Source: Minisyncoccota bacterium (GTDB taxonomy: Bacteria > Patescibacteriota > Minisyncoccia > Phycocordibacterales > CALRHW01). Taken from it: a stretch of DNA of 64,000 bases. The translations under genes were made by a program, and so were the position numbers. Shown one piece after another: positions 26,806-64,000 of the stretch. The DNA is taken from positions 80,468 through 144,467 of the forward strand of contig JAXLZT010000001.1 in the NCBI GenBank assembly GCA_046350795.1, written 5' to 3'. Position 1 is the stretch's first letter, and every line of letters starts with the position of its first letter. The notes under the pieces were generated by a model. That model worked only from the letters and a program-made list of their open reading frames with translations, was not told the DNA's origin and did not search any database.

Positions 26806-26822
26806 AATTTAAACTAAAGCCT

Positions 26823-42686: not shown

Positions 42687-44162
42687 TTATTCTATCTCTT
42701 CCCAAGACAGTATCGTATATTGATCAGATGTAAGAGGAAAACTAGGCGGTGGACCATATAGAAGATTGGCATCATATATTATCTGTCTTGTGTCATATCC
42801 GGTCCCATCTGTATAAGCAAAACCATAACGATTGTAGGTAGCCAACATTCCATACAGAGTAATAATGCTTCTTGTATACCAATTATTTCCACCAGATTTA
42901 CAGCTAGTACTGTAATAATACCTTCCCACTCTGCCGTTTTGTGCCACCAAAGCAGCATCTATACGTAGATCGTTCTCGCTCACCATTCCCACGTTTATAT
43001 CTTTCTGTGCAATAAGAGAAAGAACGTCTTGTCCATCATAGTTTGTATATTTTAAATCATTATTTACTGTAATACTCGTGCGTGTAGACGAGTTATCTGG
43101 AAACTTACCCGAAGCAATGGTGAGTCTAGCTGTATTTATAGTGCCCTCTACCCACAAATTGTCCTCAACAAAAATAATTCCGTTGGTTGGAAAGTTCTGA
43201 TTTGATTGCAAAAGAGTCGTACCATTGACACTCCATGTTCCCCATCCAGTTTGATTTTGAGAATTGGAACAACTACCGGGTGGAGACACCAGTGTGTTTA
43301 CTTTGTATAAATCAAACTTATCATTATTTTTTAAAACTAGTTTATATCCAAGGGCACCAGATCCAGCAAAATATCTTCCAGAAGACTGAGCGCTGGATTT
43401 CATCTGGGCTAAATCAGAAGTAAGACCAGTAAAATCAACTGCTGGCACAGGAAACTGTCTGCCGGCCTCAAAAACATCTGCTCTAGTGGGCACGGGACTA
43501 GTAGGCGGTGCCTCATTTGGACGAAAAGCATCATTTATTCCAGAAGACGGTGGTGCGTTAACATGTGTATGTACAGCAAACTCATTATTACCACTATGAT
43601 CTGGGTCGTCGTACTCAGAAAGAGCACTTGAAATAGTGTTATGTGCCAAACCATCAAAACGAATTCCACCGTTTGAATGAATTGGTCCAAATACTTCTGT
43701 ACCTTCTCCAAAACGCATATCTCCGTTTGAAACAAAAGCAAATTTTGCAAAAGAAGCTATAGCCAACTGTGATTCTATAGTACGAGAGGCGCTGGGATCA
43801 GCGAGTACATTACCGGTAGACCTAATCTTTACAATAGTTGTGCCAGTAGGCGGTGGTGTTATGGTTAAAACAAAATTTCCAACTTCCACACCGTCTTTAT
43901 CATAAAAAGAATGAGTATATGGTCCAGGCTGACCAGTACCATCTTGATAGTCTTGTGGTGCATGAGCTAAATGCCACCTATAATAATCTATCCCTGCTTC
44001 TGCTATTTGTATTGCTTGCTCTCTGTATACAGAGCGTTTTGATAATTTTATATTTGAAGCGCCCCACATAATAAGACCACCCATTACAACCACAGCAATA
44101 GAAGAAAAAACGAGCGCTTGGATTATTAGAAAACCACTTTTTTTGTTTCGAGAAGCTATCAT
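42687..44162 (-). CDS. type IV pilus-associated protein with PilX-like N-terminal anchor (putative minor/tip pilin)
   Basis: N-terminal KKSGFLIIQALVFSSIAVVVMGG hydrophobic helix, large Gly/Asn/Thr-rich beta domain; in pilin cluster. Confidence 0.55.
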   Translation of the reverse strand: MIASRNKKSGFLIIQALVFSSIAVVVMGGLIMWGASNIKLSKRSVYREQAIQIAEAGIDYYRWHLAHAPQDYQDGTGQPGPYTHSFYDKDGVEVGNFVLTITPPPTGTTIVKIRSTGNVLADPSASRTIESQLAIASFAKFAFVSNGDMRFGEGTEVFGPIHSNGGIRFDGLAHNTISSALSEYDDPDHSGNNEFAVHTHVNAPPSSGINDAFRPNEAPPTSPVPTRADVFEAGRQFPVPAVDFTGLTSDLAQMKSSAQSSGRYFAGSGALGYKLVLKNNDKFDLYKVNTLVSPPGSCSNSQNQTGWGTWSVNGTTLLQSNQNFPTNGIIFVEDNLWVEGTINTARLTIASGKFPDNSSTRTSITVNNDLKYTNYDGQDVLSLIAQKDINVGMVSENDLRIDAALVAQNGRVGRYYYSTSCKSGGNNWYTRSIITLYGMLATYNRYGFAYTDGTGYDTRQIIYDANLLYGPPPSFPLTSDQYTILSWEEIE

Positions 44163-44776
44163 AAATTATCTTTCAAATTTCTTGGTGTTACTTGAGATGT
44201 AACAGTAGATGGACCAGGTGGACGATTTACATCTTTATCAATTGTAACGTTGATTTTTATAAGGCGCACTGAAAGCGTATCTACCGGCATAGATAAAGGT
44301 GTAGTAGTGCCAGCATAAGATGAATCATAATAACTAAATATTGGTGAGCTTGTAGCGTTTACCACATTTGTTATTAAAGTTTCTATTTTTTCTGTACCAG
44401 TATAACCCACTGGATTACCCGAAGGATCTACCACACCCTTTTTTAAAGATCCATTTTGTAAATAATAACGCACTTTTTCTTTTGACCCATCATTATCTAT
44501 ATCAGTGTAAAAAGTCATAGTACTAGTGGCCGCCTGAGCTATAGGATATGCACCGGCTGCAGACTGAGACATAGATCGTAATTCCCCCACCATAATACGA
44601 AGCACCCTACCACCTTCAAATTGCGCATTGAGACTACCCTGCAAACTATAATTGAGAGAAAAAATATCTTTCTGAAATGTTGTAATGCCCACTATTATCA
44701 GAGTCAAAATACCGAGCACCACTAGGGTTTCTACAATCGAATATCCGCTATTATTTTTTTTAAATCTAAAATACAT
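44159..44776 (-). CDS. type IV pilin-like protein (prepilin-type N-terminal domain)
   Basis: NNSG-YSIVETLVVLGILTLIIVGI class III signal / methylation motif. Confidence 0.7.
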   Translation of the reverse strand: MYFRFKKNNSGYSIVETLVVLGILTLIIVGITTFQKDIFSLNYSLQGSLNAQFEGGRVLRIMVGELRSMSQSAAGAYPIAQAATSTMTFYTDIDNDGSKEKVRYYLQNGSLKKGVVDPSGNPVGYTGTEKIETLITNVVNATSSPIFSYYDSSYAGTTTPLSMPVDTLSVRLIKINVTIDKDVNRPPGPSTVTSQVTPRNLKDNL

Positions 44777-44780
44777 AAAT

Positions 44781-46559
44781 TTATTCTGGTAAAAGGACAA
44801 TGTCATGTTGTTGCCAATTTGCTGAGACCGGTACAGAATCAGTCACATCCTCATATCCAGTTCTAGAAACAGTTACATCATAAGTGCCAGCAGATAAATC
44901 AGAGAAGAAAGCTTGTCCGGGCGGTATACAAGAGGAGGTATAAGTAAAAGAAATCTGCGCGATATTTGGTGTAAGCGTTGTGCTAGCTGTGTTTAAGAAA
45001 ATTTTATATCTTAAATATTCATTGTTATTGTGTGCTGAACTTAAATCTGGTGTAGAAATTGTGTAATAAGATCCAGCGGTACCATCTGGTCCAATAAAAT
45101 TCCATGTAGCATTGTCATTGTTAGTTGCCACTTTGAAACGTACATTGTCAGCACCAGTATCTGCTGGCTGACCTACAGGCTCCCACAATATCTTATTAAA
45201 ATTGCTTGTCGTACCGGTATCAAAAGTTGAGCTTATCAAAAAACCATCAGTAATATATGTACCGAATACATTTCTCAATCTCAACTCACCTGTCGGATTA
45301 TTTGTCTCAATATTTCCATCTGAACTAAAATACTGATCATCATTTACCATATTTGATTGACCACTACCGCCAGACCAATCACTTTGAGTAGAGAAACCTT
45401 GACCAGTAATAAGGGTTTGAGTGAAAGAACCAGATGTAATAGTCACCTCTGCGCCAGATATCGGTAGTTGTGTACTCGCATCCCTCACAGATACGAGCAG
45501 GCTTTTAGTATTTTTAGGAACCACAATCAAGTCCACGTCTTGGGACGAATTTGGAACAAGAGCAAATGGGTTTGGCGGATTCATACCCACCAAATCATAT
45601 GAGCTATCAGTAAGGTCAACAGTGTATGTATCCCAGCGCATATTTGACACAGTTTTTCTCCCAGAAGAATTTGTAACATGATCCACAGAATATTTCCTTA
45701 CATCAGGATTTGTACCAATAGAAGTAGCGCCGGTAAGTGTAAAATCGATATTTGGCACCGTCGCGCAAGATGGAGTAATACTAGAAAAATTGATGGTGCT
45801 CACGCGATCTATAACCAAAGTGACTTGGGTCACTTGTTGCACTGCCACAGTTGCGTGTGGCTTTATTGGATTTGGATTATTTACATCACCTGAAGTATAT
45901 GTCTGATCACTTGTATACCCGGACTTGCTTACTGTTATCTGATAAGACTGCACTCCAGGTGGCACATCCACCACCTGCAACATACCAGATGTATTGGTAA
46001 CGTCATCAATTACAAGATCCGGATTGGGTTGCGTATTTACAATATGCACATCTGCATCAGATACGGGCTGACCATTTGAATCCAATACCTGAATAAAAAG
46101 TGCGCCATTTGTAGAAGCTGTCTCTAAATTTTTTGGAGCAACCCTAGAAGTAATACTCATTCCAGAAAAATTTTTACATGTATCACAAGTCACCCCTATT
46201 TCCACAAGACGATAGTCAGCTGGAGAGAGATCATTTGGTGATTGACCAATAAGCCCATCAAAAGGATCGTCTATATTTCTTATGGTTGTGGTGACCAAAA
46301 AAGAAACACCGTCTCGCACCAAAGTCTGCTCATGTGGCAAAACACCAGACGGCACAGAGTTGACTATACCTACATCTACATATTCAAGATTGCGAATAAT
46401 TTCAAACTGTTCGTTTATCAAATTCGCAGCTGTTATTTTTACATGCGAAGCGCCTACTACACCATATATAGAAGTAAATCCGCCATAAACACTGACAGAT
46501 ACAAGTAAAAACAGAGCGACTCCCACAAGCACTTCTACTAGAGTAAGACCTTTATTCAT
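44781..46559 (-). CDS. large (592 aa) type IV pilin-like protein with C-terminal beta-sandwich domains
   Basis: MNKG-LTLVEVLVGVALFLLV prepilin N-terminus followed by long Thr/Ser/Asn/Val-rich domains. Confidence 0.7.
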   Translation of the reverse strand: MNKGLTLVEVLVGVALFLLVSVSVYGGFTSIYGVVGASHVKITAANLINEQFEIIRNLEYVDVGIVNSVPSGVLPHEQTLVRDGVSFLVTTTIRNIDDPFDGLIGQSPNDLSPADYRLVEIGVTCDTCKNFSGMSITSRVAPKNLETASTNGALFIQVLDSNGQPVSDADVHIVNTQPNPDLVIDDVTNTSGMLQVVDVPPGVQSYQITVSKSGYTSDQTYTSGDVNNPNPIKPHATVAVQQVTQVTLVIDRVSTINFSSITPSCATVPNIDFTLTGATSIGTNPDVRKYSVDHVTNSSGRKTVSNMRWDTYTVDLTDSSYDLVGMNPPNPFALVPNSSQDVDLIVVPKNTKSLLVSVRDASTQLPISGAEVTITSGSFTQTLITGQGFSTQSDWSGGSGQSNMVNDDQYFSSDGNIETNNPTGELRLRNVFGTYITDGFLISSTFDTGTTSNFNKILWEPVGQPADTGADNVRFKVATNNDNATWNFIGPDGTAGSYYTISTPDLSSAHNNNEYLRYKIFLNTASTTLTPNIAQISFTYTSSCIPPGQAFFSDLSAGTYDVTVSRTGYEDVTDSVPVSANWQQHDIVLLPE

Positions 46560-46567
46560 GGTTTAAA

Positions 46568-47788
46568 TTAAATTGCGTCGGCAAGAGAATACATCGGTCC
46601 GAGCATAGATATCGCAAAAAATCCAACACCGATACCAATAACGACCATCAAAAATGGTTCTATAATGGTCGACATGTCTTTTGTTTTTTGATCAACCTCT
46701 TCTTCATAAAATTGAGCTACGTTTGCAAGCATTTCAGATAATTTTCCTGTCTCCTCTCCAATGCTCACCATCTCCCCCACAAACACCGGGTAAAGTTTTT
46801 CGTGTTTTAAGAAAATATTTGAAACCGGATCTCCTTTTTCTATATTTATCTCAGCCTCTTTTAACACAGCTTTATAATAAGAATTTTGAATAACATCTTG
46901 TGTAATACGTACAGCCACAAGCACATCCACACCAGAAGAAAGTAGAGAAGAAAAAGTACGTGCAGTACGAGCGGAGTTGAGATCTTTTACAATTCCAGAA
47001 ATCACGGGTACGTGAAGCACAAAAGTATCTAAAGCCCTCTTGCCTCTTTTTGTCTTTATAGAAAAATAAAAAACCAAACCAACAGTAATAAGGATTAATA
47101 GATTTATAATAATATGATTTTTCAAAAAGTCTGACAGCCAAATAACCATTTTTGTAGAAAAAGGTAAGGAAACATTCAAATCTTTAAAGGTTGATGTAAG
47201 TGTCGGCACCAAATATATAAGCATCAAAACACCTATAGTAATCATAATAGACAAAATAATTGCTGGATATATGAGCGCTCCACGAATTTTTTTTGTAAGC
47301 TGATAAGCTTTTTCAAGCTGAGCAGACACCACCTTAAGAGACTGAGTGACACTACCGCTTTCCTCTCCAGATTTAACCATTGATACAAAGAGTGAAGAAA
47401 AAACATCCAAATGCTTTGCCATTGCCTCACTTAGAGCACTTCCCTTGCCGATATCAACATTGAGTTCACCTATTACTTTTTTAAATTTCTTATTTTTTGT
47501 CTGTCGCTCCATTACAGAAAGCGCACGCGCCAAAGGCAATCCAGCTTCTATCATTGTGCCGAGGTTTTTTGCAAACATTATCTTGTCTATTGTCTTAACC
47601 CTACCCAGTAGATTGCCAAAATGAATATTTTTAACAAAACCCACTCCATCTTTTTGCTCCTCAGCAAAAGTAACGGTGTCCCCGTCTAGACGAATCTGCT
47701 GATATAGAGCAGATTTACTTTCTGCTTCTTTTACACCACTATATTTTTCACCCGTCTTTTTTACCGCTTTGAAGTTAAATTTTGGCAT
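46568..47788 (-). CDS. pilC: type IV pilus assembly platform protein PilC (GspF family)
   Basis: two T2SS-F repeats, three TM segments. Confidence 0.88.
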   Translation of the reverse strand: MPKFNFKAVKKTGEKYSGVKEAESKSALYQQIRLDGDTVTFAEEQKDGVGFVKNIHFGNLLGRVKTIDKIMFAKNLGTMIEAGLPLARALSVMERQTKNKKFKKVIGELNVDIGKGSALSEAMAKHLDVFSSLFVSMVKSGEESGSVTQSLKVVSAQLEKAYQLTKKIRGALIYPAIILSIMITIGVLMLIYLVPTLTSTFKDLNVSLPFSTKMVIWLSDFLKNHIIINLLILITVGLVFYFSIKTKRGKRALDTFVLHVPVISGIVKDLNSARTARTFSSLLSSGVDVLVAVRITQDVIQNSYYKAVLKEAEINIEKGDPVSNIFLKHEKLYPVFVGEMVSIGEETGKLSEMLANVAQFYEEEVDQKTKDMSTIIEPFLMVVIGIGVGFFAISMLGPMYSLADAI

Positions 47789-47815
47789 ATAGTTTTACGA
47801 TATTTATTAGAAAAA

Positions 47816-49570
47816 TTATTCTGATACCACACGCAATATTTCTTCTATTGTGGTCTGACCCTGAACAGCTTTGAAAATGCCGTCTTCTATCATAGACAAC
47901 ATACCTTCGGCTTTTGCTTGTTTCTCTATTTCTTTATCAGTCTTACCCTGCATCACAAGCTCTTTTATAGCTGGAGACACCTTGAGCACTTCGTATATAC
48001 CCACTCGGCCACTAAAAGCTTGCTCAGGGTCTACACCGGCTTTTGGTCTATAAAAAGGTATTTTGTCCCAAGACACTTTTCCTTCTACCACCTTTTCTTC
48101 TTTCAAAAACTTTAAGACACGATCAAGGTCAACGGTTTTTTTCAAAGTTTCTATCTCGGCGTCAGTCAAAAAGTATTTTTCTTTTTTATCAGTAAGTTTA
48201 CGAACGAGACGCTGTGCAATAACTACGTTTAATGTAGAGACGATTAAAAACGGCTCGACTTTCATATCTATGAGACGAGGTATCGCACCTGCAGCTGAGT
48301 TGGTGTGCAGTGTGGAAAGCACGAGATGACCTGTAAGTGATGCGTTGACCGCAAGAGAAGCTGTCTCACCATCACGGATCTCTCCCACCATGATAATGTC
48401 TGGGTCCTGACGCACTAGTGTGCGTAGACCGTTACTAAAGGTCAATCCTATCTCAGACTTTACTTGCGTTTGGTTGATACGATTCATTTGATACTCTACC
48501 GGATCCTCTATAGTAGAAATATTTACGTCAGGCGTATTTAAAATATCAAGCATTGTATATAGAGAAGTGGTCTTTCCAGATCCTGTCGGTCCAGTAGTGA
48601 GTATGAGTCCAGTCGTCTGATTCATTGCCTTGTGTATTTGCTCTAGAGCCTCACCGTGATAACCGAGTACTTCGAGAGTAAATCCAGAAGCTGATTCGCG
48701 AAGCAAACGCATTACAGTCTTTTCTCCGTAGTAAATAGGCAAAGTAGAAACACGGAAAGAAACTTTTTCTCCGTTCATGTCTATTTTAAAGCGACCGTCT
48801 TGTGGTAAACGCTTTTCATCTAGCTTTAGATTTGCGAGCACTTTTATGCGTGCGGTGATACTAGTAGAAATATTTTTAGGTAATGTCATAGCGTCATGAA
48901 GCATACCGTCGATACGGTATCTGACTATCACCTGATTTTCGAGGGGCTCGATGTGAATATCAGAAGCGTTTTGAATAATTGCATGTTTTAAAAGAGTATC
49001 GACTATGCGCACCACAGGCATATCCTCAGCAAGCTTCTTGAGGTCGCTCTCTGACACATCTTCGTTTTCACCTCCATCGGCTACAGCTTTTATGGACACG
49101 GATTCTTTTTGAATCAAATCTCCAAATTCTGCCTTAAGACTTTTTTGATATTGCAAAAGCACACTCTTAATAGATTCGCTATCAGTCAAACGAGGCAATA
49201 TTTTCAATCCAACTTTCTTTTTTACAAAATCAATAGCGGTCAGATTGGCAATATCAAGCATTGCCACCTCGAGTCCCCCAGGTACTTTTTTAAAACCAAC
49301 TATATTGTGATTGCGAGCAATAGGTTCTGGAATAAGAGCGAGCACATCAAAATCTATCTTTATACCCTTTAAATCAACAAAAGGAATACCTAAAATATTA
49401 GCCTGAATCTTGCGCAATTCATCCTCACCTATCTTACCCTTGCTTACAAGTACTTCTCCCACATCAACATCCTTTTCCTCTGCCTCTTTTTCTGCAGAAG
49501 CAAAATCGGCTTTTGATACAAGACCAGAGTCCAAGATGAAATCTTTAAATTGTTTTTCTTCAATGTGCAT
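47816..49570 (-). CDS. pilB: type IV pilus assembly ATPase PilB (GspE family)
   Basis: N-terminal GSPII_E_N domain, Walker A TGPTGSGKTTSLY, Asp box, His box. Confidence 0.92.
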   Translation of the reverse strand: MHIEEKQFKDFILDSGLVSKADFASAEKEAEEKDVDVGEVLVSKGKIGEDELRKIQANILGIPFVDLKGIKIDFDVLALIPEPIARNHNIVGFKKVPGGLEVAMLDIANLTAIDFVKKKVGLKILPRLTDSESIKSVLLQYQKSLKAEFGDLIQKESVSIKAVADGGENEDVSESDLKKLAEDMPVVRIVDTLLKHAIIQNASDIHIEPLENQVIVRYRIDGMLHDAMTLPKNISTSITARIKVLANLKLDEKRLPQDGRFKIDMNGEKVSFRVSTLPIYYGEKTVMRLLRESASGFTLEVLGYHGEALEQIHKAMNQTTGLILTTGPTGSGKTTSLYTMLDILNTPDVNISTIEDPVEYQMNRINQTQVKSEIGLTFSNGLRTLVRQDPDIIMVGEIRDGETASLAVNASLTGHLVLSTLHTNSAAGAIPRLIDMKVEPFLIVSTLNVVIAQRLVRKLTDKKEKYFLTDAEIETLKKTVDLDRVLKFLKEEKVVEGKVSWDKIPFYRPKAGVDPEQAFSGRVGIYEVLKVSPAIKELVMQGKTDKEIEKQAKAEGMLSMIEDGIFKAVQGQTTIEEILRVVSE

Positions 49571-49656: not shown

Positions 49657-50463
49657 TTAATTTTTAACACAATACAACAAAGCAATGTATGGATTTAACA
49701 TGTTCATTGCCTCAGCGTTTCCAGTAGCACCTATACTAGGTGAGGACGTATTTGGATTATCCCAAGGAATGTCTACGTTTTGTTGACAAGTGCCCCCAGA
49801 ACAATAATTTTTTCCTGTATTTCCAAAAGCGTTTACAAGATAATTTCCATTATTATTTATGGTGTGATTATGAGATGCCATCTGTTCTAAAGTCTGTACA
49901 ATAGCCTCCTGACCACCCTTTTGTCCTAAAGTATGATTTGTACTAGCAGTGGATCCACTTCCTGTATTAGAGTTTCCTACTCCCAGTATTACTCTACCTG
50001 CACCATCAGTAAAAGGACTCCATCCAGATGGGCATGAAGATAGGTTGAAAGACATGACCGCACCAGAAGGAGCATTTATCACAACACCGCCACTATTTGT
50101 CGGCCACTGTGTAATACAAGCATCTCCTATACAAAAACCTGTGCGACTTTTTGAGTATCCCACCACATCAAGCATTTGAGTTGGCGCATCTGTACCAATA
50201 CCAACCTTGCCAGCATAAGCAGAAAAACCGAGATCATCTTGCAACACAGCGGCGCCCACAGTAAGTCCTCCTTGTTTTATCTGACCGACTGTACCTAAAT
50301 TTATAGGCGGTCTACATCCAGGCGTAAAGTTGTTAGCACAATCTGGCGGTGGAGATGAAGGCGCACTCCAACCAAAAACAGTTACAGAACCAAAGTAAAA
50401 TACGCAGGTTAAAAGAACAATCTTAATATTTTTTATAATTTCTTTTTTATTATTCATATTCAT
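49657..50463 (-). CDS. secreted phage tail-collar/MdpB-like domain protein, paralog 1
   Basis: signal peptide, conserved CPSGWSPFTDGAGRVILGVG...LGQKGGQEAIVQ...H-x-H...NPYIALLYCVKN resembling tail-collar / microcystin-dependent protein domains. Confidence 0.65.
   Translation of the reverse strand: MNMNNKKEIIKNIKIVLLTCVFYFGSVTVFGWSAPSSPPPDCANNFTPGCRPPINLGTVGQIKQGGLTVGAAVLQDDLGFSAYAGKVGIGTDAPTQMLDVVGYSKSRTGFCIGDACITQWPTNSGGVVINAPSGAVMSFNLSSCPSGWSPFTDGAGRVILGVGNSNTGSGSTASTNHTLGQKGGQEAIVQTLEQMASHNHTINNNGNYLVNAFGNTGKNYCSGGTCQQNVDIPWDNPNTSSPSIGATGNAEAMNMLNPYIALLYCVKN
49895..50051. repeat. 157-bp block 100% identical to 50711-50867 and 51530-51686 (within three paralogous genes)
   Basis: direct comparison of sequence text. 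Confidence 0.9.
50132..50184. repeat. 53-bp block identical to 50939-50991 and 51770-51822
   Basis: direct comparison; encodes QMLDVVGYSKSRTGFC on minus strand. Confidence 0.85.
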
Positions 50464-50469
50464 AATCTT

Positions 50470-51267
50470 CTAAGGTAAATCTTTAGAACAATAAAGCAAT
50501 GTGACATATGGATCCGTAATATTCATTGGACTGCCACCCAAATTGTTATTAACGGTTGGGGTAAAAAAATCTCCAGTAGTAATAATAGAATTTGAACTAA
50601 CACAAGATTGATTGGTGCAAAAATTTTTTTGTTGTTTACCAAGATAGTTCACCCAAATAGGATAGTTGCCGGTCGCGGCATGATTGTGCGGAGGAAGTTG
50701 AGACGCTTCTTGTACAATAGCCTCCTGACCACCCTTTTGTCCTAAAGTATGATTTGTACTAGCAGTGGATCCACTTCCTGTATTAGAGTTTCCTACTCCC
50801 AGTATTACTCTACCTGCACCATCAGTAAAAGGACTCCATCCAGATGGGCATGAAGATAGGTTGAAAGCCGCAACAATAGCGCCAGAAGGTATACTTGATC
50901 CACCAGCATTCCAGTTTTGTATACAACTATCATTGATGCAAAAACCTGTGCGACTTTTTGAGTATCCCACCACATCAAGCATTTGAGTTGGTTCAATAGT
51001 GCCTATACCGGCCTTTCCTTTCAAGACCAAAAGGCTTGGTTGGCTTGCATCCAAACCATAACCAACAGTAAGGCCTCCCTGTTTTATTTGACCGTCACCC
51101 CCCAAGTGTAATGGCGCATCACATCCAGGATAATTTGTAGGGCAATTGGTTGGACTGCCTGGTGGAGGGCTCCATGCTCCATAAACAGCATTTACACCAA
51201 CACTCAAAAAAAATGCAATTACTACTATCTTAAAATTTTGTAATATTTTTTCTTTTAGAAGATTCAT
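50470..51267 (-). CDS. secreted phage tail-collar/MdpB-like domain protein, paralog 2
   Basis: same conserved core as 49657-50463, divergent N- and C-terminal flanks. Confidence 0.65.
   Translation of the reverse strand: MNLLKEKILQNFKIVVIAFFLSVGVNAVYGAWSPPPGSPTNCPTNYPGCDAPLHLGGDGQIKQGGLTVGYGLDASQPSLLVLKGKAGIGTIEPTQMLDVVGYSKSRTGFCINDSCIQNWNAGGSSIPSGAIVAAFNLSSCPSGWSPFTDGAGRVILGVGNSNTGSGSTASTNHTLGQKGGQEAIVQEASQLPPHNHAATGNYPIWVNYLGKQQKNFCTNQSCVSSNSIITTGDFFTPTVNNNLGGSPMNITDPYVTLLYCSKDLP
50711..50867. repeat. 157-bp identical block, copy 2
   Basis: direct comparison. Confidence 0.9.
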
Positions 51268-51279
51268 GGCGTATTTAAA

Positions 51280-52107
51280 TTAATTTTTGGAACAATAAAG
51301 TAATGTGACATATGGATCCATAATATTCATCGGTAACGGACTATCTGAACCTATTGGTTGCAACCACACCGTACCTTGATTGTTATATGCATTTTTAAAA
51401 TTTCCACCACTGCAATTATTTGATCCCTGTTGACAGCTATTAATACTAGGAACACCAATAGGCCTCAACCAACCAGAAGACCCGCCACCATTAAACGAAT
51501 GGCTATGAACTGCCACCTGTGATTCGTCTTGTACAATAGCCTCCTGACCACCCTTTTGTCCTAAAGTATGATTTGTACTAGCAGTGGATCCACTTCCTGT
51601 ATTAGAGTTTCCTACTCCCAGTATTACTCTACCTGCACCATCAGTAAAAGGACTCCATCCAGATGGGCATGAAGATAGGTTGAAAGGTAAAACGGTACCA
51701 GAAGGAAGTTCTACCACATTATCACCGCCAGTCGCCCATGAAAAAGACGTGATACAGCTATCGTTGATGCAAAAACCTGTGCGACTTTTTGAGTATCCCA
51801 CCACATCAAGCATTTGAGTTGGTTCGGTCGTACCTATACCAGCTTTTCCGCCAGCAACAGCAAAGCCAAGAGAATCTGTAGACAAACTTTCACCAAGTAT
51901 TAAACCGCCGTCTTTTATCTGCCCGTAAGATCCAATATGAACTGGTTTATCACAACCAGTAGCGCCAGAAGGGCAATTGTTTTCAATGTTTGGAATACCA
52001 GGTGGACCCACCCAAGCCAAAAGAGTGCTCACCCCTGTGCCAAGCATAAAGGTTAACAAAGCTATTTTCATCCAATCAATAATTTCTTTTTTTATAAAGC
52101 TTTTCAT
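51280..52107 (-). CDS. secreted phage tail-collar/MdpB-like domain protein, paralog 3
   Basis: same conserved core; C-terminus DPYVTLLYCSKN. Confidence 0.65.
   Translation of the reverse strand: MKSFIKKEIIDWMKIALLTFMLGTGVSTLLAWVGPPGIPNIENNCPSGATGCDKPVHIGSYGQIKDGGLILGESLSTDSLGFAVAGGKAGIGTTEPTQMLDVVGYSKSRTGFCINDSCITSFSWATGGDNVVELPSGTVLPFNLSSCPSGWSPFTDGAGRVILGVGNSNTGSGSTASTNHTLGQKGGQEAIVQDESQVAVHSHSFNGGGSSGWLRPIGVPSINSCQQGSNNCSGGNFKNAYNNQGTVWLQPIGSDSPLPMNIMDPYVTLLYCSKN
51530..51686. repeat. 157-bp identical block, copy 3
   Basis: direct comparison. Confidence 0.9.
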
Positions 52108-52116
52108 TTTTTAAAA

Positions 52117-52452
52117 TTATTTTGCTGTCATTGAGTTGATAAGTTTGTTCTTTTTCTCTACGGACAGGCCCGCTTGGCTTGATTTTGCTGTACTAGACTT
52201 TATAAGTGCCTGTCTTTCTTTTTCAGTAAGATTTGATGGGCCTTTTGCTGTCATTGAATTGATAAGTTTTTGTTCTGGAGTCATCTGAGAATCTGGAGAA
52301 GTGCCCGTCTTTTCTTTAAACATAAAAATTATAGCAACAAAAACAATTAGGCACGCTATAAAAATAACAACCCATCTAGTTTTATTGTGTTGAGAGTCGG
52401 CAACTTGATTTATGTTATTTAGATTGTTATCCATGTCATTTAAATTATACAT
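52117..52452 (-). CDS. small single-TM protein with three (L/I)INSMTAKGPS-type repeats
   Basis: TM WVVIFIACLIVFVAIIFMF; repeats seen in translation; ATG overlaps stop of upstream 762-aa gene (translational coupling). Confidence 0.55.
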   Translation of the reverse strand: MYNLNDMDNNLNNINQVADSQHNKTRWVVIFIACLIVFVAIIFMFKEKTGTSPDSQMTPEQKLINSMTAKGPSNLTEKERQALIKSSTAKSSQAGLSVEKKNKLINSMTAK

Positions 52453-54740
52453 TAAAATTCATTTGTATCTGGTTGCGCTACTACAACTATAGAGTTATCA
52501 CATTTTTTAACAGTAGAAACACCATTTACATTTGTAGCTGTAACATAAAGCTCTTTTATTCCAGTTGTAGCATATGTTTTTACAAAGTTTGTATTAGAAC
52601 CCGTAGATGTTGGATTAACATTTGTTCCCTCCCAAGAATATGTTAGTGGATTTAGTGGATCAACAGTCGCTGGTGTAGCCACCCAAGTAACAGGATTGTT
52701 TACCAAATATGGCGGACCGCCCGCTGCTTTACATGAGGCCAAATCGAAAGATGGTACAAGCACTGGAATAGTAACTGTTTTTTCTGGAATAGAAGATTGG
52801 CCCTTAACAATAACTTCGTACATACCAGGGTCAGTATCTGGAGATACATTTATTGAAAGAGTCTTTTGACAATCTGGTTTGCAACTAGCATTTGCAGGCA
52901 GAGACGCTGTGAGTGGTGAGGTAGCACCACCCGGCGCATTTACCTGAACTGATAAATCAACTGTTTCTGTCTTTCCAGAAGTAAGGGTTAAATTGATATC
53001 GGAAGTTACATTGTGAGTTTCTCCCGGAACAGTCCAGCTAGTAAAACCACTCGGTAAAGCAGTAATAGAATAATCAAAAGGAGCTGGAACGCCATAGGTT
53101 ACCTTATGATAACCATTCACAGGATCATTAAACCGGATCCATCCAAGCGCTTCTCCACCCCACATTGATCCCATTATACGAGCAGTCTTTCTGTTGTAAG
53201 TAAGTCCAGCATCTCCGTGTTCATGACTATAGCCGGTTGGGAAAGTATTATCAGAAAGTTTTATCCAACCATCAAATCCTGGAGTGCTATCTCCACTCAA
53301 GACTCTAGCCCAACCAGCAATAGAACCAACATTCTGATCTATGTTTGTTAGACTAGCAACGTCACTTGAATTATTTGGTCCTGTTAGACCACCAAAATTT
53401 ATCCAACCCACAGAATCACTCCAAGCATGACCAGAAAGTGTTCCAGATCCACCCATAACACCGCCATTATTTACACTTACTCCAAAACCACCGGATGTAG
53501 CACAAGGTGAATCGGCCACACCATCCTGATCTTCATCAAAACAACTATTCATCTGTATCCAGCCAATGTTGTCTGACCAAGCATATCCAAAAATATTACC
53601 AATTTCATTTTCTACACACTGGCCATTTACAGGCTCAGTATTGCCCTGACACTTTGCTTCACATTTTGGCGCACTACCAGATGGAGAACTACATGAAGCT
53701 ACTGTTGTATAAGGAGTATCAGCTGTCAGACCGGTGCCATCTCCAGCACAAAGGGTAGAATTTGCAGGAAGAGTACCTGTGCATGAATAGGTGGGAGCTG
53801 GAACACAAGAATCTGAATTACCCGGACCAGGAGAATAAACGTATCCTATGTCACACTCTCTTTCACATTTTGGTGCGCTTCCTGTTGGAACGCTACAAGA
53901 CTGGACCAAATCATACTGTATATTGCCACTAAACCCAGCGTTGTCTCCCGAACAAAGTACTGAATTTGATGCAACATTTCCATTACATGACCCACTCAAA
54001 CCACCTCCACCGGATTGAGTAATAGTGCCTGATTGTCTCCACTCACTCCACAATCCCTGACAGCTATCCCAATTACGCACTGCTATTTTTATAGGTTCTC
54101 CTTGATATTTTGTTGGGGTCTGAAGTTGAGCTACACCACTATATCCAGCAGGAATTACTGGTGGATAATCTACCCATATCGGCACACTTACATCTTCTGG
54201 CTCCTGATTATTTAAAATTACAATAACCTGATGCTCCTCTCCTGTTCCGTTGTTTGCAGCTGGCGGAATAGTAATATTTAGATCGTTTAAACCGGGATTT
54301 ACATACGAACCAGAAAAGCTACCGGATACCCATGTAGGTGGTACTGGAAAATCATTTGTACAAGGACCCTCTTTTCCGCCTCCACCATTGCCTCCATCAC
54401 CATCTGACATTGTTGGAGTGTAATCTTGAATACCTCCCACACCATCATTATCAATAGTAGTTATCTGGCAAGTACCGACGTTTTCAGCAGTACAAGCTGG
54501 TGGATTTCCAATACCGTTCACACCCACACAAAGACCAGACTGACACTGACTATTACTAACACATATACCACCATTTGGGGTGTTATTGGTACAAGAGAGT
54601 ACTGTTGGGTTAGCACCTTTTCCCTCTACACCAGGTGAATGAGCAACAAAAAGCATTCCTCCAAAAAGCACAGCCACAGCTAAAGCAAAAAACAAAAGTG
54701 ATCTATTACGAATAATTCCTTCTTTTATATTTTTCACCAT
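52452..54740 (-). CDS. large Cys-rich secreted surface protein with AWS-x-NIGWI repeats and C-terminal PKD-like domain
   Basis: signal anchor; CSxPxGSAPKCE Cys repeats; four G(Y/W)AWSxNIGWI-like repeats; C-terminal PYLVNNPVTW...YSWEGTN...TTGIKELYVTATNVNG PKD-like; ends ...PDTNEF. Confidence 0.65.
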   Translation of the reverse strand: MVKNIKEGIIRNRSLLFFALAVAVLFGGMLFVAHSPGVEGKGANPTVLSCTNNTPNGGICVSNSQCQSGLCVGVNGIGNPPACTAENVGTCQITTIDNDGVGGIQDYTPTMSDGDGGNGGGGKEGPCTNDFPVPPTWVSGSFSGSYVNPGLNDLNITIPPAANNGTGEEHQVIVILNNQEPEDVSVPIWVDYPPVIPAGYSGVAQLQTPTKYQGEPIKIAVRNWDSCQGLWSEWRQSGTITQSGGGGLSGSCNGNVASNSVLCSGDNAGFSGNIQYDLVQSCSVPTGSAPKCERECDIGYVYSPGPGNSDSCVPAPTYSCTGTLPANSTLCAGDGTGLTADTPYTTVASCSSPSGSAPKCEAKCQGNTEPVNGQCVENEIGNIFGYAWSDNIGWIQMNSCFDEDQDGVADSPCATSGGFGVSVNNGGVMGGSGTLSGHAWSDSVGWINFGGLTGPNNSSDVASLTNIDQNVGSIAGWARVLSGDSTPGFDGWIKLSDNTFPTGYSHEHGDAGLTYNRKTARIMGSMWGGEALGWIRFNDPVNGYHKVTYGVPAPFDYSITALPSGFTSWTVPGETHNVTSDINLTLTSGKTETVDLSVQVNAPGGATSPLTASLPANASCKPDCQKTLSINVSPDTDPGMYEVIVKGQSSIPEKTVTIPVLVPSFDLASCKAAGGPPYLVNNPVTWVATPATVDPLNPLTYSWEGTNVNPTSTGSNTNFVKTYATTGIKELYVTATNVNGVSTVKKCDNSIVVVAQPDTNEF

Positions 54741-59259: not shown

Positions 59260-59814
59260 TCAGTTGTTGTGTGGAGAGAAGCGACCTCCATAGCTGTCGT
59301 CCCCCGGGGACTTTCCCTTCTTCCACCAGTCAGCGGGGTCTTCTGTCTCCCTCTTGGGGCCAAACAGATTCTTGAGAAACACCCCCCAGAATCTTGCCTT
59401 GGCAGATCCAGTCTTCCTTGACTGGTGTTCTGCAACATCCGCGGCTGCCATCAGCCCAGCGGTAATCACATCCGCCAAGACGTCGTTGTCAGTGTTGATC
59501 TTCCTGGGTTCCTTCCACCGGAACGTCCAGGCCACCACAAGTCCCACCATCGCACACATCAAAGATTTGACGATCCACAACTGAGTTATGGAGAGGCCCG
59601 TGCTGGTCGGGACACCGTCGATCAGCATCGACATGCAGAAGCATGTCACGGCGACCGCCCTCACTGCATTGTTTGCCATCGTTCGCTTCCACCGAAGCGG
59701 AAGGACAAACGACACAAACAGAACGCCTGAAGAGATGAGAAACATCATAGCGGGAACGAAGGTCATGAATAGCTCCTTGTAAATCAAGTTTTTGACCACC
59801 GCATTGGTAGCCAT
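59260..59814 (-). CDS. hypothetical high-GC membrane protein
   Basis: 3 predicted TM helices, about 58% GC, start at MATNAVV (ORF-track start 59871). Confidence 0.45.
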   Translation of the reverse strand: MATNAVVKNLIYKELFMTFVPAMMFLISSGVLFVSFVLPLRWKRTMANNAVRAVAVTCFCMSMLIDGVPTSTGLSITQLWIVKSLMCAMVGLVVAWTFRWKEPRKINTDNDVLADVITAGLMAAADVAEHQSRKTGSAKARFWGVFLKNLFGPKRETEDPADWWKKGKSPGDDSYGGRFSPHNN

Positions 59815-59934
59815 ATTTACAAAACCCCCACTGATAAAGAATCTTGTAAATATGGCCACCTCACACAACAAATGTTAAAGAACCCTACTTTTATATTATA
59901 CACCTAAAATATCTACCTGTCAATAGACCATATT

Positions 59935-60663
59935 TCACCCCATCAAAAACAATGTCGCCGTTGCGACAGCCGCCGTCTCCGCCCGCAGTATCTGATTGCC
60001 CATAGTTTTTAGGTCTACCTCTTGTTTTTTAAAAAATTCAATCTCTTTTTCACTCCAACCACCCTCTGGTCCGATGAAAATAGCGACAGGCTCTGTATCA
60101 GACGTGTCCTTTGAAATCATGGCTATACCCCCTGGATCAAAGGCTATTTTATGAGCCGGAAATTTAAAAAACGAATCATTACTGTTAGAAAAAATATCTT
60201 CAAGTGTCATCACCGGATGAATTTCTGGCACAGTACCTCTACCAGACTGCTCACTTGCTTCGCGAGCTATTTTTATGAGACGCTCCATATTTAAATCTTT
60301 TTTCTCAGAACGCTCTGCAACCACCGGTACAAAATGATTGACGCCTATTTCAGTCCCCTTTTCTACTATCCATTCAAAATTATCTTTTTTTACAATAGCC
60401 ATACAAAGCCATACGTCTTTTTTGGCTGTAGGTACGGTGCGTGATTCACCTACAGAGATTTGCGCTGATTCTTTTGAAAGCATTTCTATCTTGCATGTGT
60501 ACTCTCGGCCAGAGCCGTCAAAAAGTATCACATTGTCGCCCGTGCCTAGCCGGAAAACCTTTTTCCATTGATGTATCAAATCCGCATCAAAAATATCGAG
60601 TCTTTTTTGCTCTCCTATCTGCTTAGCACCTTTCTCTCCGACAAAAAATCTATGTAATCTCAT
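59935..60663 (-). CDS. rsmE: 16S rRNA (uracil1498-N3)-methyltransferase RsmE (SPOUT)
   Basis: MRLHRFFV N-terminus, PUA-like domain, GPEGGWSEKE SPOUT knot motif. Confidence 0.85.
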   Translation of the reverse strand: MRLHRFFVGEKGAKQIGEQKRLDIFDADLIHQWKKVFRLGTGDNVILFDGSGREYTCKIEMLSKESAQISVGESRTVPTAKKDVWLCMAIVKKDNFEWIVEKGTEIGVNHFVPVVAERSEKKDLNMERLIKIAREASEQSGRGTVPEIHPVMTLEDIFSNSNDSFFKFPAHKIAFDPGGIAMISKDTSDTEPVAIFIGPEGGWSEKEIEFFKKQEVDLKTMGNQILRAETAAVATATLFLMG

Positions 60664-61309: not shown

Positions 61310-62185
61310 TTATTGAATTCTCACAGCCCAACCGTTTCTTGTTTCTCCACAGTCGTAATCATTTCCTGTGGTTGTACAGTCTGTAGGTGGTACTCCTAAA
61401 ATACTTCCGATACTTGTGCCACCATTTACTACAGTCAAACTTACATATGGAATTGAAGTATACATTTCTCGATCAGCTGCACTATCTCCTATCTGATCCA
61501 TTCTCACCATATTTACCATCCACTTGGCACTAGATCCACCAGGCAAAGCTGGACCTGTACCACCAGTTACAGTACCGGCCCATGAAGTTGCCCACTTTCC
61601 ACCGGTCACACCAATATTATGACCAGGTTCTTGACCGTATGCTTCTGAATATCCAAAGGCAAAAGATACGGTAGCGCCCACACCAGTAGTTTGATTTGAT
61701 CCGGTTCCATATGGCTTCATATTAAGACCTGACTGTGCCTGAGGAAGATCTCTCCACTCCGCAACACCAGATGTACCAATAGCTGTAAGCACTTGCCCAT
61801 TTGAAATAAGACCATCAGAAGCTGTTGCTCCACCACGAATTCTTACTTGACCGCCCACATCAAGCTTGATGTTGTCATTTCCGGTATCATTTAAATAATT
61901 ATTTATAGCGACTCTACCGTTTACTACAAAAAGTCCAGGTGCTCCGGGAGCTGGAGTACCAGAAGATACTATCAACCCTCCTACCTTTGACTGAGCAACA
62001 CCACTTATGTTTATAGGTGGATTACAGCCAGGAATACTCATATCTGTACATACTGGAGGATCACCTGCTGGTGGTGGGGTCCATGCACCATGCACCACTC
62101 CTATGCCCATTACCAAAACAAGAGCAAGTATCAAAACCCTCACACTTTGTAATATTTCTTTTTTAAATGAATTCATTTTTTTCAT
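61310..62185 (-). CDS. secreted protein sharing the N-terminal AW(S/T)PPP...C...GC.PP...Q.K.GGL module with the tail-collar paralogs but with a different Gly/Thr-rich C-terminal domain
   Basis: VHGAWTPPPAGDPPVCTDMSIPGCNPPINISGVAQSKVGGLIV aligns with N-termini of 49657/50470/51280 proteins. Confidence 0.55.
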   Translation of the reverse strand: MKKMNSFKKEILQSVRVLILALVLVMGIGVVHGAWTPPPAGDPPVCTDMSIPGCNPPINISGVAQSKVGGLIVSSGTPAPGAPGLFVVNGRVAINNYLNDTGNDNIKLDVGGQVRIRGGATASDGLISNGQVLTAIGTSGVAEWRDLPQAQSGLNMKPYGTGSNQTTGVGATVSFAFGYSEAYGQEPGHNIGVTGGKWATSWAGTVTGGTGPALPGGSSAKWMVNMVRMDQIGDSAADREMYTSIPYVSLTVVNGGTSIGSILGVPPTDCTTTGNDYDCGETRNGWAVRIQ

Positions 62186-62212
62186 AATAATTTTAATAAT
62201 TTTTTGATTATT

Positions 62213-62488
62213 TTACTGACTACTCATCGACTTTATTATTTTTGCCATCTCCTCATCTGATATTGTACTTTCTTTTGTACTTGTCATCTCTTTTATAATT
62301 CTTTTACTTTCTTCAGAACTTAATGTCGATGGTCCGGTTGCGGTCATTTCTTCTATTATCCTCTGAGAATCTGTTGCTTCTGGTAAATTGGGAGCGGATG
62401 AGTATTTTTTTATTATCCCAAACACCACCACAATCACCGATATGCACATTATTAGAGTAATAATTTTTTTATTTTTTAAATAATTCAT
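62213..62488 (-). CDS. small single-TM protein with three RIIEEMTATGPS-type repeats (paralog of 52117-52452)
   Basis: TM IITLIMCISVIVVVFGII; repeats RIIEEMTATGPS / RIIKEMTSTKES / KIIKSMSSQ. Confidence 0.55.
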   Translation of the reverse strand: MNYLKNKKIITLIMCISVIVVVFGIIKKYSSAPNLPEATDSQRIIEEMTATGPSTLSSEESKRIIKEMTSTKESTISDEEMAKIIKSMSSQ

Positions 62489-62493
62489 GTTTT

Positions 62494-64000
62494 TTAAAAT
62501 TCACCAGTTTTTGGTTTAGCTAATATCAATACTTCAGCGTCATTACATGTCACAGGTATGCTTCCGCTTGAACTATCTCTAATGGTTAGACTCATTCTTT
62601 TTGTACCAGTAGTTTCATATGATCTATTAAAAGATACTTCTGTGGCATTTGTTGTCTCAGAACTTAAAACAACACCGCGCTCAACCCAATCGTATTGATA
62701 AGGTGGAGTACCTCCCGAAATTTGAGCCTTCCATTCTACTGGCTTGTTTATTACAACAATAGATTTTGTTGATTGTAGAGAGGAACATGTTGGACTAATC
62801 GAAACATCACCACTGATATTCGCAGTAACTGTTACCGGTATATCTATTGATTTTGTTGGTAAATCAGCTGTTGTCGCTTTTACACGAACATTATAAAGTC
62901 CCGGAGTAGTAAGCGTTCCAGCATTAACGGTAAGTGTTTTTTCACATGCAGGGGCCGGCGGTGTCGTAGGAATACATTTATTATTTCCATTAAAAGAAAC
63001 ACTTAAAGGATGGAGTAAATCATTGTTTGTAACGAGAGAAGCCAGAGTAACTTCTTGCGCTACAGGATTATCTAAAATAACACCAATTTTTGTTGTCTTT
63101 GAGCTTCTTTGCGTCATGGAAAGAGATGCGGGTGTCGCTGTAAGATGATAATTAAAAGTATTTGTTGGCACACTATATGTAACATCAGAAAAATTAACCC
63201 AACCCAACACATCACCACCCCAAGCATATCCTACGATGTGAGCTGTTGGCTTATTGAAAGTAACCCCAGCCAATCCATCGGTATGAGTAGGGCCAGATGG
63301 AAAAGAAGTACCGGCCAGACTAAGCCAACCATCCCAGCCAGATGTATTGTCACCCCAAAAAGCTCTTGCCCACCCACGAATAGTGGCTTGGTCTGGCATT
63401 AATTCTGCATTTACGGATTCTGTTCCACCGCCAGACGGAAAACCAGACAAGCCACCAAATTTAATAAAACCAATATTTGGACTCCAAGCATAACCAGTAA
63501 TGGTTCCAGGACCAGACGGTATGTTTGTGCTCACATCATTATTTGCATTATTGATTCTCACACCATAGCTGTTTGGTCCACAACTTCCAGAATCAGCAAA
63601 ACCGTTATGATCTTCATCTTTACAACTATTCATACTTATCAAACCAATATTTGAAGACCATGCCCAACCATACACATTACCCGTTTCAGTCATAGCAGAA
63701 ACAACTTCACACTTTGTATTTTGTGTACAACTAGAAACCACTGACCATGGTGTATTTTGTGTCACATTGGTATCACCGGGACACACTTGACCAGGTGGTT
63801 GTGTACCAACGCAAGAGGGCGCTGGTGGCAAAACACAAACACCGCCCTGATTTATATATGGCGCATTACAAGTCATTTCACACTTTTTACCGTCGGTACA
63901 AGCAGAAACGATTGACCATGGCACATCTCCGGATACACCATCTGTATCATTTGGACAAACTGTATTATTGGAAGGATCTGGTGGTGTACCAACACATTGA
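62494..64000 (-). CDS. large Cys-rich surface protein with AWS-x-NIGWI repeats and C-terminal PKD-like domain (paralog of 52452-54740), N-terminus beyond window
   Basis: frame stays open to 64000 with repeat CVGTPPDP...VCPNDTDG...PWSIVSACT; YGWAWSSNIGLI, GYAWSPNIGFI, GYAWGGDVLGWVNF repeats; PYQYDWVERG...TTGTKRMSLTIRD PKD-like; ends ...PKTGEF. Confidence 0.65.
   Translation of the reverse strand, partial: QCVGTPPDPSNNTVCPNDTDGVSGDVPWSIVSACTDGKKCEMTCNAPYINQGGVCVLPPAPSCVGTQPPGQVCPGDTNVTQNTPWSVVSSCTQNTKCEVVSAMTETGNVYGWAWSSNIGLISMNSCKDEDHNGFADSGSCGPNSYGVRINNANNDVSTNIPSGPGTITGYAWSPNIGFIKFGGLSGFPSGGGTESVNAELMPDQATIRGWARAFWGDNTSGWDGWLSLAGTSFPSGPTHTDGLAGVTFNKPTAHIVGYAWGGDVLGWVNFSDVTYSVPTNTFNYHLTATPASLSMTQRSSKTTKIGVILDNPVAQEVTLASLVTNNDLLHPLSVSFNGNNKCIPTTPPAPACEKTLTVNAGTLTTPGLYNVRVKATTADLPTKSIDIPVTVTANISGDVSISPTCSSLQSTKSIVVINKPVEWKAQISGGTPPYQYDWVERGVVLSSETTNATEVSFNRSYETTGTKRMSLTIRDSSSGSIPVTCNDAEVLILAKPKTGEF

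Follow-up and report, generated by a model that had tools for sequence, protein, structure and literature searches.

The window analysed here, a 64,000-nucleotide (nt) stretch of a metagenome-assembled genome of an ultra-small Patescibacteria bacterium labelled Candidatus Paceibacterota, ends in a minus-strand cassette of three genes that encode a large AWS-repeat protein, a small bitopic membrane protein and a secreted fibre-like protein. We refer to it as cassette 2, and to a related set of genes at 49657-54740 of the same window as cassette 1. Cassette 2 is an intact, selectively kept second copy of a three-gene module, and comprises the following genes.

62494..64000, minus strand: 3' part of large gene 2, residues 305-805 of a protein of 805 amino acids (aa); stop codon at 62494-62496.
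62213..62488, minus strand: small bitopic membrane protein 2, 91 aa; paralog of 52117-52452.
61310..62185, minus strand: secreted fibre-like protein 2, 291 aa; signal peptide (residues 1-34) at 62084-62185.

An earlier note on this DNA had claimed the minus-strand order of large gene, 91-aa transmembrane protein and secreted protein at 61310-64000, and the three open reading frames (ORFs) are indeed arranged in this way. Within the window, large gene 2 shows no in-frame stop as far as base 63999 on the minus strand, and its 5' 912 nt lie beyond the window edge. Neighbouring DNA was reached by an exact look-up of the 91-aa protein, which led to its own contig and 13 more. The large gene is complete in the NCBI contig (GCA_964417815.1, L001), where it occupies L001:7578-9995 and encodes 805 aa headed by an N-terminal hydrophobic helix; the window fragment is identical to the last 501 residues of this protein. 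The sequence upstream of 64000, which the note had named as a check, therefore reveals an intact gene and not a short fragment or pseudogene. The description of the encoded proteins as 'giant' does not hold, as those of cassettes 2 and 1 (805 and 762 aa, respectively) are large at most. In cassette 2 the large and small genes are joined as TAA, 5 nt, ATG, and the ORF coordinates leave a 27 nt gap between the small and fibre genes. The corresponding large/small junction in cassette 1 is TAATG, a 1-nt overlap, so that the tight adjacency or overlap reported for both pairs is confirmed. Cassette 2 is flanked by a divergent RNase Y gene upstream and a convergent ClpP gene downstream. Promoter and terminator scans around it performed no better than on shuffled sequence.

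The paralogous cassette consists of the following genes.

52452..54740, minus strand: large protein 1, 762 aa, ending PDTNEF; paralog of large protein 2.
52117..52452, minus strand: small bitopic protein 1, 111 aa; gene overlapping the large gene by 1 nt.
49657..52107, minus strand: three tandem fibre paralogs of 275, 265 and 268 aa, with phage tail-collar-like heads.

Pairwise BLASTP alignment supports the proposed paralogy for the large proteins (34% identity over ~530 columns, E = 3e-79), the small proteins (31% identity, E = 4e-13) and the N-terminal ~130 aa of the secreted proteins (30% identity, E = 1e-8); it fails for the C-terminal halves of the secreted proteins, which are unrelated between the cassettes. 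Likewise, the two cassettes have the gene order in common, as had been stated, but differ in the number of fibre genes (three in tandem in cassette 1, one in cassette 2). At the DNA level only two short patches are shared, at 72-74% identity. This near absence of DNA similarity rules out a recent duplication and points to an old divergence. A foreign origin by composition was also ruled out, the GC content of the cassettes being typical of the genome.

The earlier note overlooked that the module belongs to a type IV pilus operon. On the same strand as cassette 1 and directly 3' of it, pilB, pilC and pilin-like genes occupy 42687..49570.

47816-49570, minus strand: pilB, Pfam T2SSE (E = 2e-124).
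46568-47788, minus strand: pilC, Pfam T2SSF (E = 1e-53).
44781-46559, minus strand: 592-aa pilin-like protein with an N-terminal methylation-motif match.
44159-44806, minus strand: 215-aa pilin-like protein, in the pilus gene set directly downstream.
42687-44162, minus strand: 491-aa protein of unassigned function, last in the downstream set.

The N_methyl matches of the pilin-like proteins fall just under the cut-off, and the NCBIfam IV_pilin_GFxxxE match is marginal (16.5 against a cut-off of 16.3). The 592-aa protein additionally carries CarboxypepD_reg, SpaA-like and PEGA-like modules and is a candidate bulky modular pilin; it directly follows pilC and is kept in two of the related loci listed below (L008 and L021).

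The order large gene, small gene, fibre gene(s), pilB, pilC was found in eight loci, namely cassette 1 and seven others.

L008: related metagenome-assembled genome, reached via the large protein.
L009: sequencing-run assembly, reached via the large protein.
L011/L012: Hainich groundwater, reached via the small protein.
L013: sequencing-run assembly, reached via the small protein.
L014: metagenome scaffold, reached via the fibre head.
L017: metagenome contig, reached via the small protein.
L021: sequencing-run assembly, reached via the fibre alone.

Upstream of the module, nusA was seen on the contigs of cassette 1, L008, L011, L013, L014 and L021; for L009, L012 and L017 the contig is either too short to reach nusA or has other genes there. 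Downstream of pilC, TIM follows directly in L014 and pilin-like genes elsewhere. Cassette 2 has the full composition of the module, with a large AWS protein followed by a bitopic repeat protein in the 85-120-aa range and a fibre with a signal peptide. It is the only copy that does not adjoin pilB, the site directly upstream of pilB in the window being held by cassette 1. The gap between RNase Y and ClpP in which it sits also carries a cassette in the sister lineages L019 and L020, and is free of one in L008, the genome of which is closely related (NusA 97%, PilB 92% identical). Cassette 2 is thus a displaced copy of the pilB-linked module, located in the RNase Y/ClpP gap. The nearest outside relative of all three of its proteins is the pilB-linked cassette of L008 (50%, 35% and 48% identity for the large, small and fibre proteins, compared with 36%, 29% and 31-38% to cassette 1), and the cassette-2 fibre head was found beside pilB in L014 (P0032, 49% identity over the full length). 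By these comparisons the three cassette genes move as a unit. In our estimate the chances are about even that in the ancestral state of this Patescibacteria lineage (Candidatus Paceibacterota) the module opened the type IV pilus operon.

Two further observations concern the L008 relative and the RNase Y/ClpP gap. In L008 the gap holds a GC-rich small ORF with paired Cys motifs (L008:1700-2468), and a similar-looking 115-aa ORF lies upstream of the cassette in L020 (L020:34-381); the gap looks like a variable insertion spot. The L008/L010 relative was deposited as an uncultured Candidatus Saccharibacteria, and, given the label of the window genome, one of the two labels is probably wrong.

The large protein of cassette 2 was divided into domains on the basis of its sequence and an AlphaFold2 model.

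63697..63999, minus strand: Cys-rich modules, residues 305-405, with the pattern C..G..P....C.GD...W..V.SCT...KCE.
63157..63696, minus strand: AWS domain, residues 406-585, four β-hairpin repeats of the GYAWSxNIGWIxF type.
62812..63156, minus strand: first immunoglobulin (Ig)-like β-sandwich, residues 586-700; predicted local distance difference test (pLDDT) of the AlphaFold2 strands, 72-89.
62521..62811, minus strand: second, PKD-like Ig domain, residues 701-797, from AlphaFold2.
62497..62520, minus strand: flexible tail AKPKTGEF, of the form P-x-x-x-E-F-COOH; mean pLDDT 45 at residues 801-805.

The model of the whole 805-aa protein has a mean pLDDT of 67 and places a hydrophobic helix at residues 11-31, a disordered Cys/Gly-rich stretch at residues 32-133 and a β domain at residues 160-295 ahead of these domains. 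The Cys-module stretch is repeated in multiple copies in other large proteins (profile positions ~270-395). The 'AWS repeats' of the earlier note are present, four in number, and are now modelled as hairpins that are predicted to build an eight-stranded β-barrel. Across 17 sequences the invariant AWS columns are G415, W418, S419, G423, A475, W476, G481, F485, G513, G525, G528, G561, W564, G565, G570 and W571. We defined the resulting AWS-barrel/Ig/tail family, which is uncurated, by a large-protein profile (profile A2); large protein 2 shows its features in full, with four AWS hairpins, two Ig-like domains and a C-terminal P-x-x-x-E-x-COOH. An exhaustive search with this profile returned 5291 relatives at E ≤ 1e-3, 2178 of them at E ≤ 1e-10, and many relatives are proteins of 400-470 aa with nothing but the barrel, a pair of Ig-like domains and the tail. 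The smallest of the large proteins, that of L021 (443 aa), has a signal segment ahead of the AWS domain, which is followed by two Ig-like domains and the tail.

Neither large protein gave an above-threshold match in Pfam, NCBIfam or PDB sequence searches. In the case of the 'PKD' label, PKD_4 (PF18911) stays below threshold on large protein 1 (E = 0.049, 14.1 bits against a cut-off of 27), large protein 2 has no match, and the L014 homolog has a weak PKD_4 match. The second Ig domain of large protein 2 has a PHROG Hoc-like match (E = 0.004). What stands of the label is the Ig-like fold, and 'PKD-like' is as far as it can be taken. Foldseek with the full 805-aa model yielded only generic tandem Ig-like matches, including ICAM and the S-layer protein SbsC; EA1 was also matched. 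The structural neighbours of the AWS barrel were a designed membrane barrel (7.4), hemophilin (7.3), OprF/OmpA (6-7), TbpB/HpuA/NHBA/fHbp (5-6) and streptavidin (5.2). The closest known folds are soluble or surface eight-stranded β-barrels such as hemophilin, the C-lobes of TbpB, HpuA and fHbp, and streptavidin, and OmpA-like membrane barrels.

Several of these neighbours are ligand-binding barrels (hemophilin, HpuA, TbpB, fHbp and streptavidin), in line with an alternative in which the module is a surface coat or ligand-capture system independent of the pilus. The barrel-Ig part would then bind a small ligand or a macromolecule, in the manner of hemophilin-type and TbpB-type barrels, and its place beside pilB would be owed solely to common regulation or to inherited gene order. 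Such a role also agrees with the S-layer proteins SbsC and EA1 among the Ig-domain matches, with the thousands of relatives, many of them short and encoded by solo genes, and with the location of cassette 2 at a non-pilus locus. It accounts poorly for the eight independent loci that keep the module beside pilB despite varying DNA after pilB-pilC, and the phage receptor-binding-like fibre heads described below suggest surface recognition, not nutrient capture. We consider a pilus-independent coat or capture system fairly unlikely.

Between loci the cassette proteins are 24-50% identical, compared with 64-92% for PilB and 77-97% for NusA. Relative to the sister lineage L019, identity is 79% for the large protein, 74% for the small protein and 91% for the fibre (90-91% in sister lineages), while it reaches 96-98% for HU, RNase Y and ClpP. 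The ratio of non-synonymous to synonymous substitution rates (dN/dS; Nei-Gojobori, against L019) is 0.15 for the large gene, 0.11 for the small gene, 0.06 for the fibre gene and 0.02-0.04 for the flanking genes, all values being approximate because dS is close to saturation in this pair. Inside large gene 2 constraint is strongest in the barrel (0.07) and the first Ig domain (0.09), and the Cys modules have the highest dN/dS among the folded domains (0.26). The possibility that large gene 2 is a pseudogene or fragment was ruled out by these ratios together with the intact 805-aa gene. The module thus evolves fast yet under purifying selection. Reshuffling adds to the variation: the large protein of L008 is a mosaic, with ends like large protein 1 and a centre like large protein 2, and segments of the large proteins as well as the fibre heads have been reshuffled between loci.

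The small protein consists of an N-terminal membrane helix followed by three ~20-aa repeats, each made up of a helix-like stretch and a Ser/Thr-rich linker, so that its extracellular part amounts to ~60 aa of three short repeats. In small protein 2 these read xRIIEEMTATGPSTLS, xRIIKEMTSTKESTIS and AKIIKSMSSQ, and MTA.GPS is invariant in the four closest sequences. The family forms 12 clusters in 5.8 billion proteins. Pattern scans of genomes and metagenomes found three loci, two of which are known contigs or near-identical Hainich assemblies and one of which is new; either the family is genuinely rare, or its members have diverged too far for the search pattern to pick up. The distant loci L014 and L021 encode a bitopic protein that resembles it in size and repeat pattern and differs in sequence.

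A small bitopic protein in the size class of the pilus alignment proteins, encoded with a large protein at a fixed position just 5' of pilB-pilC in eight loci, could be part of the pilus machine itself. According to this proposal the large and small proteins would make up a sub-complex that spans the envelope or serves alignment, in place of PilM/N/O or a secretin, and the fibres would be secondary passengers. It would agree with the AWS barrel and first Ig domain being the most constrained, and neither the genes of the pilus operon nor the further window ORFs scanned included a pilM/N/O-like one. However, core machine parts normally evolve like PilB (64-92% identity between loci) and not at 24-50%, a full second copy away from the pilus genes would be odd for such a part, and related barrel proteins exist as solo genes. 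PilN and PilO are bitopic proteins whose periplasmic parts are coiled-coil and ferredoxin-like; both small proteins gave only noise-level matches to PilN and PilO profiles in Pfam and NCBIfam, and genomes from the Candidate Phyla Radiation, or CPR, reportedly carry PilM/N/O elsewhere (PMC6744442). A structural role in the pilus machine is hence judged distinctly improbable.

All fibre proteins follow a common N-terminal plan, with a Sec-type signal peptide, W-x-x-P…Q-x-K-x-G-G-L and then G-x-V-G-I-G…K-L-D-V. In the cassette-2 fibre the two parts of the mature protein are located as follows.

61841-62083, minus strand: N-terminal module, residues 35-~115, W-x-x-P…Q-x-K-x-G-G-L…G-x-V-x-I…KLDV.
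61313-61738, minus strand: lineage-specific C-terminal head, residues ~150-291.

The shared AWSPPP...GGL N-terminal module that had been described for the secreted proteins is paralogous between the cassettes, and the remainder of the protein is not. A protein search with the fibre profile gave at least eight matches, and the spread of the N-module obtained in this way is a lower bound. Matches to phage tail or tail-collar proteins were obtained for two of the three heads in cassette 1 (PHROG 8763, E = 8e-8 and 3e-7; PHROG 1800, E = 1e-4); the 275-aa fibre has no PHROG match, and all three have weak Pfam Gp10_C matches, the only kind of match for the 275-aa protein. The cassette-2 fibre gave no match in Pfam, NCBIfam, PHROG or PDB and was not recognised as a phage receptor-binding protein; the sole match of its head is P0032. 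Among the three tandem fibre genes of cassette 1 (49657-52107), shared DNA blocks are 74-87% identical and a ~50-aa core, FNLSSCPSGWSPFTDGAGRVILGVGNSNTGSGSTASTNHTLGQKGGQEAIVQ, is the same in all three; the tips differ, a pattern that suggests gene conversion with diversification of the tips.

The fibres thus resemble phage tail fibres (PHROG 8763, 1800; Gp10_C) in having a conserved N-terminal part, exchangeable C-terminal heads and tandem paralogs with apparent gene conversion. Taken literally, the resemblance would make the cassette a prophage or tailocin-like remnant of tail-fibre and accessory genes, as the conserved-N, variable-C logic of the fibres and the phage matches of the cassette-1 heads (PHROG E = 8e-8, weak Gp10_C) might indicate. 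The locus is a cellular one, in which no other phage gene occurs and housekeeping flanks stand in conserved synteny. Furthermore, all fibres carry Sec-type signal peptides, the GC content is like that of the rest of the genome, and the cassette-2 fibre and its head lack a phage match. A screen of 2.9 million viral contigs gave no relative of the fibre N-module, and a viral fold search with the barrel (BFVD) gave no structural match, with a best E of 0.47. A phage remnant is largely refuted by these results and retains only a very slight probability.

The C-terminal tail was compared at two levels of divergence. In seven of seven close homologs Pro at position -6 (P800), Glu at -2 (E804) and Phe at -1 (F805) are invariant, and the Thr varies. 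Among 35 representatives with less than 50% mutual identity that align to the C-terminal end, Glu at -2 and Pro at -6 are each present in 32, and both in 30; position -4 is I, F, T or Y, and positions -8 and -10 are V or I. The T-x-EF ending noted earlier is accordingly found in both large proteins, although its Thr is not conserved and the family motif is better written P-x-Φ-x-E-x-COOH. Only two of the 106 window ORFs end in P-x-x-x-E-x, these being the two large proteins. The same motif also ends 21 of 115 profile matches of other architecture, in some of which the adjoining residues are unlike those of the large proteins (for example EPKGPGFIEN and KNKMPQFIER). The P0005 protein of L007, which has no membrane gene downstream, ends PKIDEF, and the solo genes P0007 and P0012 have related but non-canonical tails (…TETPF and …SLEEK).

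Known C-terminal sorting signals need a motif, a helix and a basic tail in one chain (PMC4617865; 10.1101/2023.06.07.544157). The tail resembles these tripartite signals (LPXTG/sortase, PEP-CTERM/exosortase, PGF-CTERM and MYXO-CTERM) in being a short conserved motif at the ends of exported proteins of several architectures, but differs from them in having neither helix nor basic cluster, the motif running to the free carboxylate. Large protein 2 contains no sortase or exosortase sorting domain; it stops straight after the conserved Glu and Phe, with nothing hydrophobic following. The suggestion of a possible sorting signal is therefore not borne out in its classical sortase or exosortase sense, and no cognate processing enzyme was identified.

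A variant of the sorting signal would be split over two genes, T-x-EF forming one half and the helix being supplied by the small gene through read-through or frameshifting. KPKTGEF does resemble LPxTG-E, and the next ORF, adjacent or overlapping, starts with a short segment, a hydrophobic helix and then KK. However, both Thr and Gly vary (PDIIEF, PKIDEF, PNINEF, PSFIEI, PDIIER), the frame offset between the large and small genes differs among loci, and in cassette 2 an in-frame TGA follows the TAA. The L007 member keeps its tail with no membrane gene to read into, and solo genes retain related ones. The split signal is refuted at the sequence level, its chances being close to nil. P-x-Φ-x-E-x-COOH instead behaves as a modular short linear tag, because it is found on several architectures, is free of a helix and is kept where there is no downstream membrane gene.

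Protein ends of a different kind occur near some of these genes. In L007:10590-12021 and L009:1145-1741, PEP-CTERM-like protein ends (…VPEPAVLALLGSIPVFGGRRRRR; …VPTPSALAVLALAGLVGRRR) adjoin large AWS genes belonging to the P0005/P0006 branch. The PEP-CTERM-like proteins of L007 stand in place of the small and fibre genes, and such ends in L007 and L009 would be unexpected if the contigs are Patescibacteria. The Hainich locus L011 has its own arrangement at L011:3350-7989, where two AWS-barrel genes (637 and 483 aa, with tails PDIIER and PRIIEL) enclose an AAA-ATPase/DUF4143 gene and are followed by four fibre paralogs, a collagen-like Gly-rich 359-aa protein and then pilB.

All three cassette proteins have N-terminal hydrophobic export or anchor segments; their surface location and function are predictions. 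The idea of a 'dedicated, possibly variable surface system' put forward earlier fits the data, because the genes form a paralogous unit that travels together, the products bear export or anchor segments, and the unit is reshuffled and more variable than its surroundings. The best-supported reading, to which we assign a probability of roughly 0.5, is a fast-evolving surface module associated with the pilus operon, with an adhesion mechanism that we infer as follows. All three products would be exported, and the large protein, possibly together with the small bitopic protein, would form a platform that is anchored in the membrane at the pilus machine or close to it. The fibre-like proteins may dock on this platform by their conserved N-terminal module, much as phage tail fibres do on a baseplate, and their variable heads would bind the surface of the host cell presumed to carry these episymbionts. 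A second, diverged cassette with a different head could widen or change the range of recognised surfaces, and the conserved C-terminal tail might be a short linear tag by which the large protein is retained or binds a partner.

A number of points weigh against a pilus-associated adhesion module. Cassette 2, with an upstream region of its own, lies ~7.5 kb away from the pilus genes, and in L007 neither a small gene nor a fibre follows the large gene. More distant AWS-barrel proteins are encoded by solo genes that have nothing to do with pili, so that the barrel family in itself is not specific to pili. The fibre is the best conserved of the three cassette-2 genes between sister lineages, unlike a pure arms-race receptor-binding protein, and the dN/dS values are approximate, with dS near saturation.

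Non-pilin adhesins encoded beside pilus genes are a known kind. PilY1 contains a seven-bladed propeller and is encoded with minor pilins. Like the large AWS protein, PilY1 of Pseudomonas and PilC1/PilC2 of Neisseria are large, Sec-exported, β-rich, attachment-linked and strain-variable proteins beside pilus genes. No sequence or fold match to PilY1-type adhesins was found here, and the large AWS protein differs from them in its eight-stranded barrel and Ig domains, its conserved tail, and the small bitopic protein and separate fibres upstream of pilB. Modular minor pilins, such as Streptococcus sanguinis PilB with its vWA module (10.1101/2021.01.27.428410), offer a second comparison, in that adhesive modules are displayed on type IV pili by a cell without an outer membrane. 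Their analogue in the window is the bulky 592-aa pilin-like protein with N_methyl and CarboxypepD_reg. The cassette proteins are unlike true pilins, which bear a class III signal peptide with a short basic leader, a G|F-x-x-x-E motif for cleavage and methylation and then the hydrophobic helix: the large, small and fibre proteins gave no N_methyl or IV_pilin match (PF07963 / TIGR02532), and their hydrophobic segment precedes the conserved mature N-terminus in a Sec-like manner.

Cultivated Patescibacteria all live attached to other microbes. Fast-evolving, modular and duplicated genes in front of the pilus motor genes, with swappable heads on tail-fibre-like proteins, make a concrete candidate determinant of host specificity in the mostly uncultured Paceibacteria. 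In agreement with the reading favoured here, type IV pili are widespread in CPR bacteria and have been proposed as central to cell-cell association, with PilQ absent and disulfide-forming enzymes enriched (PMC6744442). In Saccharibacteria, pili drive episymbiosis; no attachment device other than type IV pili has so far been demonstrated by experiment (PMC12206443). Surface or adhesion proteins with type IV pili and tail-fibre-like modularity are of a known kind. For the module itself, the barrel family, the N-module of the fibres and the C-terminal tag without a helix, the literature searched gave no description and the libraries searched no annotation. Three unannotated elements are thereby defined, namely the AWS β-barrel with its thousands of members, the fibre N-terminal module and the P-x-Φ-x-E-x tag. 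The more specific proposal, that the module is an undescribed accessory apparatus of Patescibacteria type IV pili in which a barrel/Ig platform anchored in the membrane displays exchangeable, phage-like receptor-binding fibres that determine host specificity, together with P-x-Φ-x-E-x-COOH as a new helix-free C-terminal tag for retention at the surface or docking of a partner, is advanced only tentatively.

Elsewhere in the window, a GC island (59200-59800, 53% against a background of ~39%) lies between trigger factor (57974-59026) and rsmE (59935-60663), two genes that abut without an insert in L008. The island holds a 203-aa ORF with multiple membrane helices (59260-59871, minus strand) and has no Rfam family match. 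At 25681-27854, a pair of neighbouring minus-strand ORFs (374 and 343 aa) has no Pfam match and is flanked by ORFs of 399 aa (24338-25537) and 714 aa (27872-30016). A tmRNA gene at 3023-3429, with the tag peptide ANALVTKAKIVSPFFGQKDFAFAYALA, is the sole RNA gene identified by Rfam or ARAGORN in the 64-kb window.

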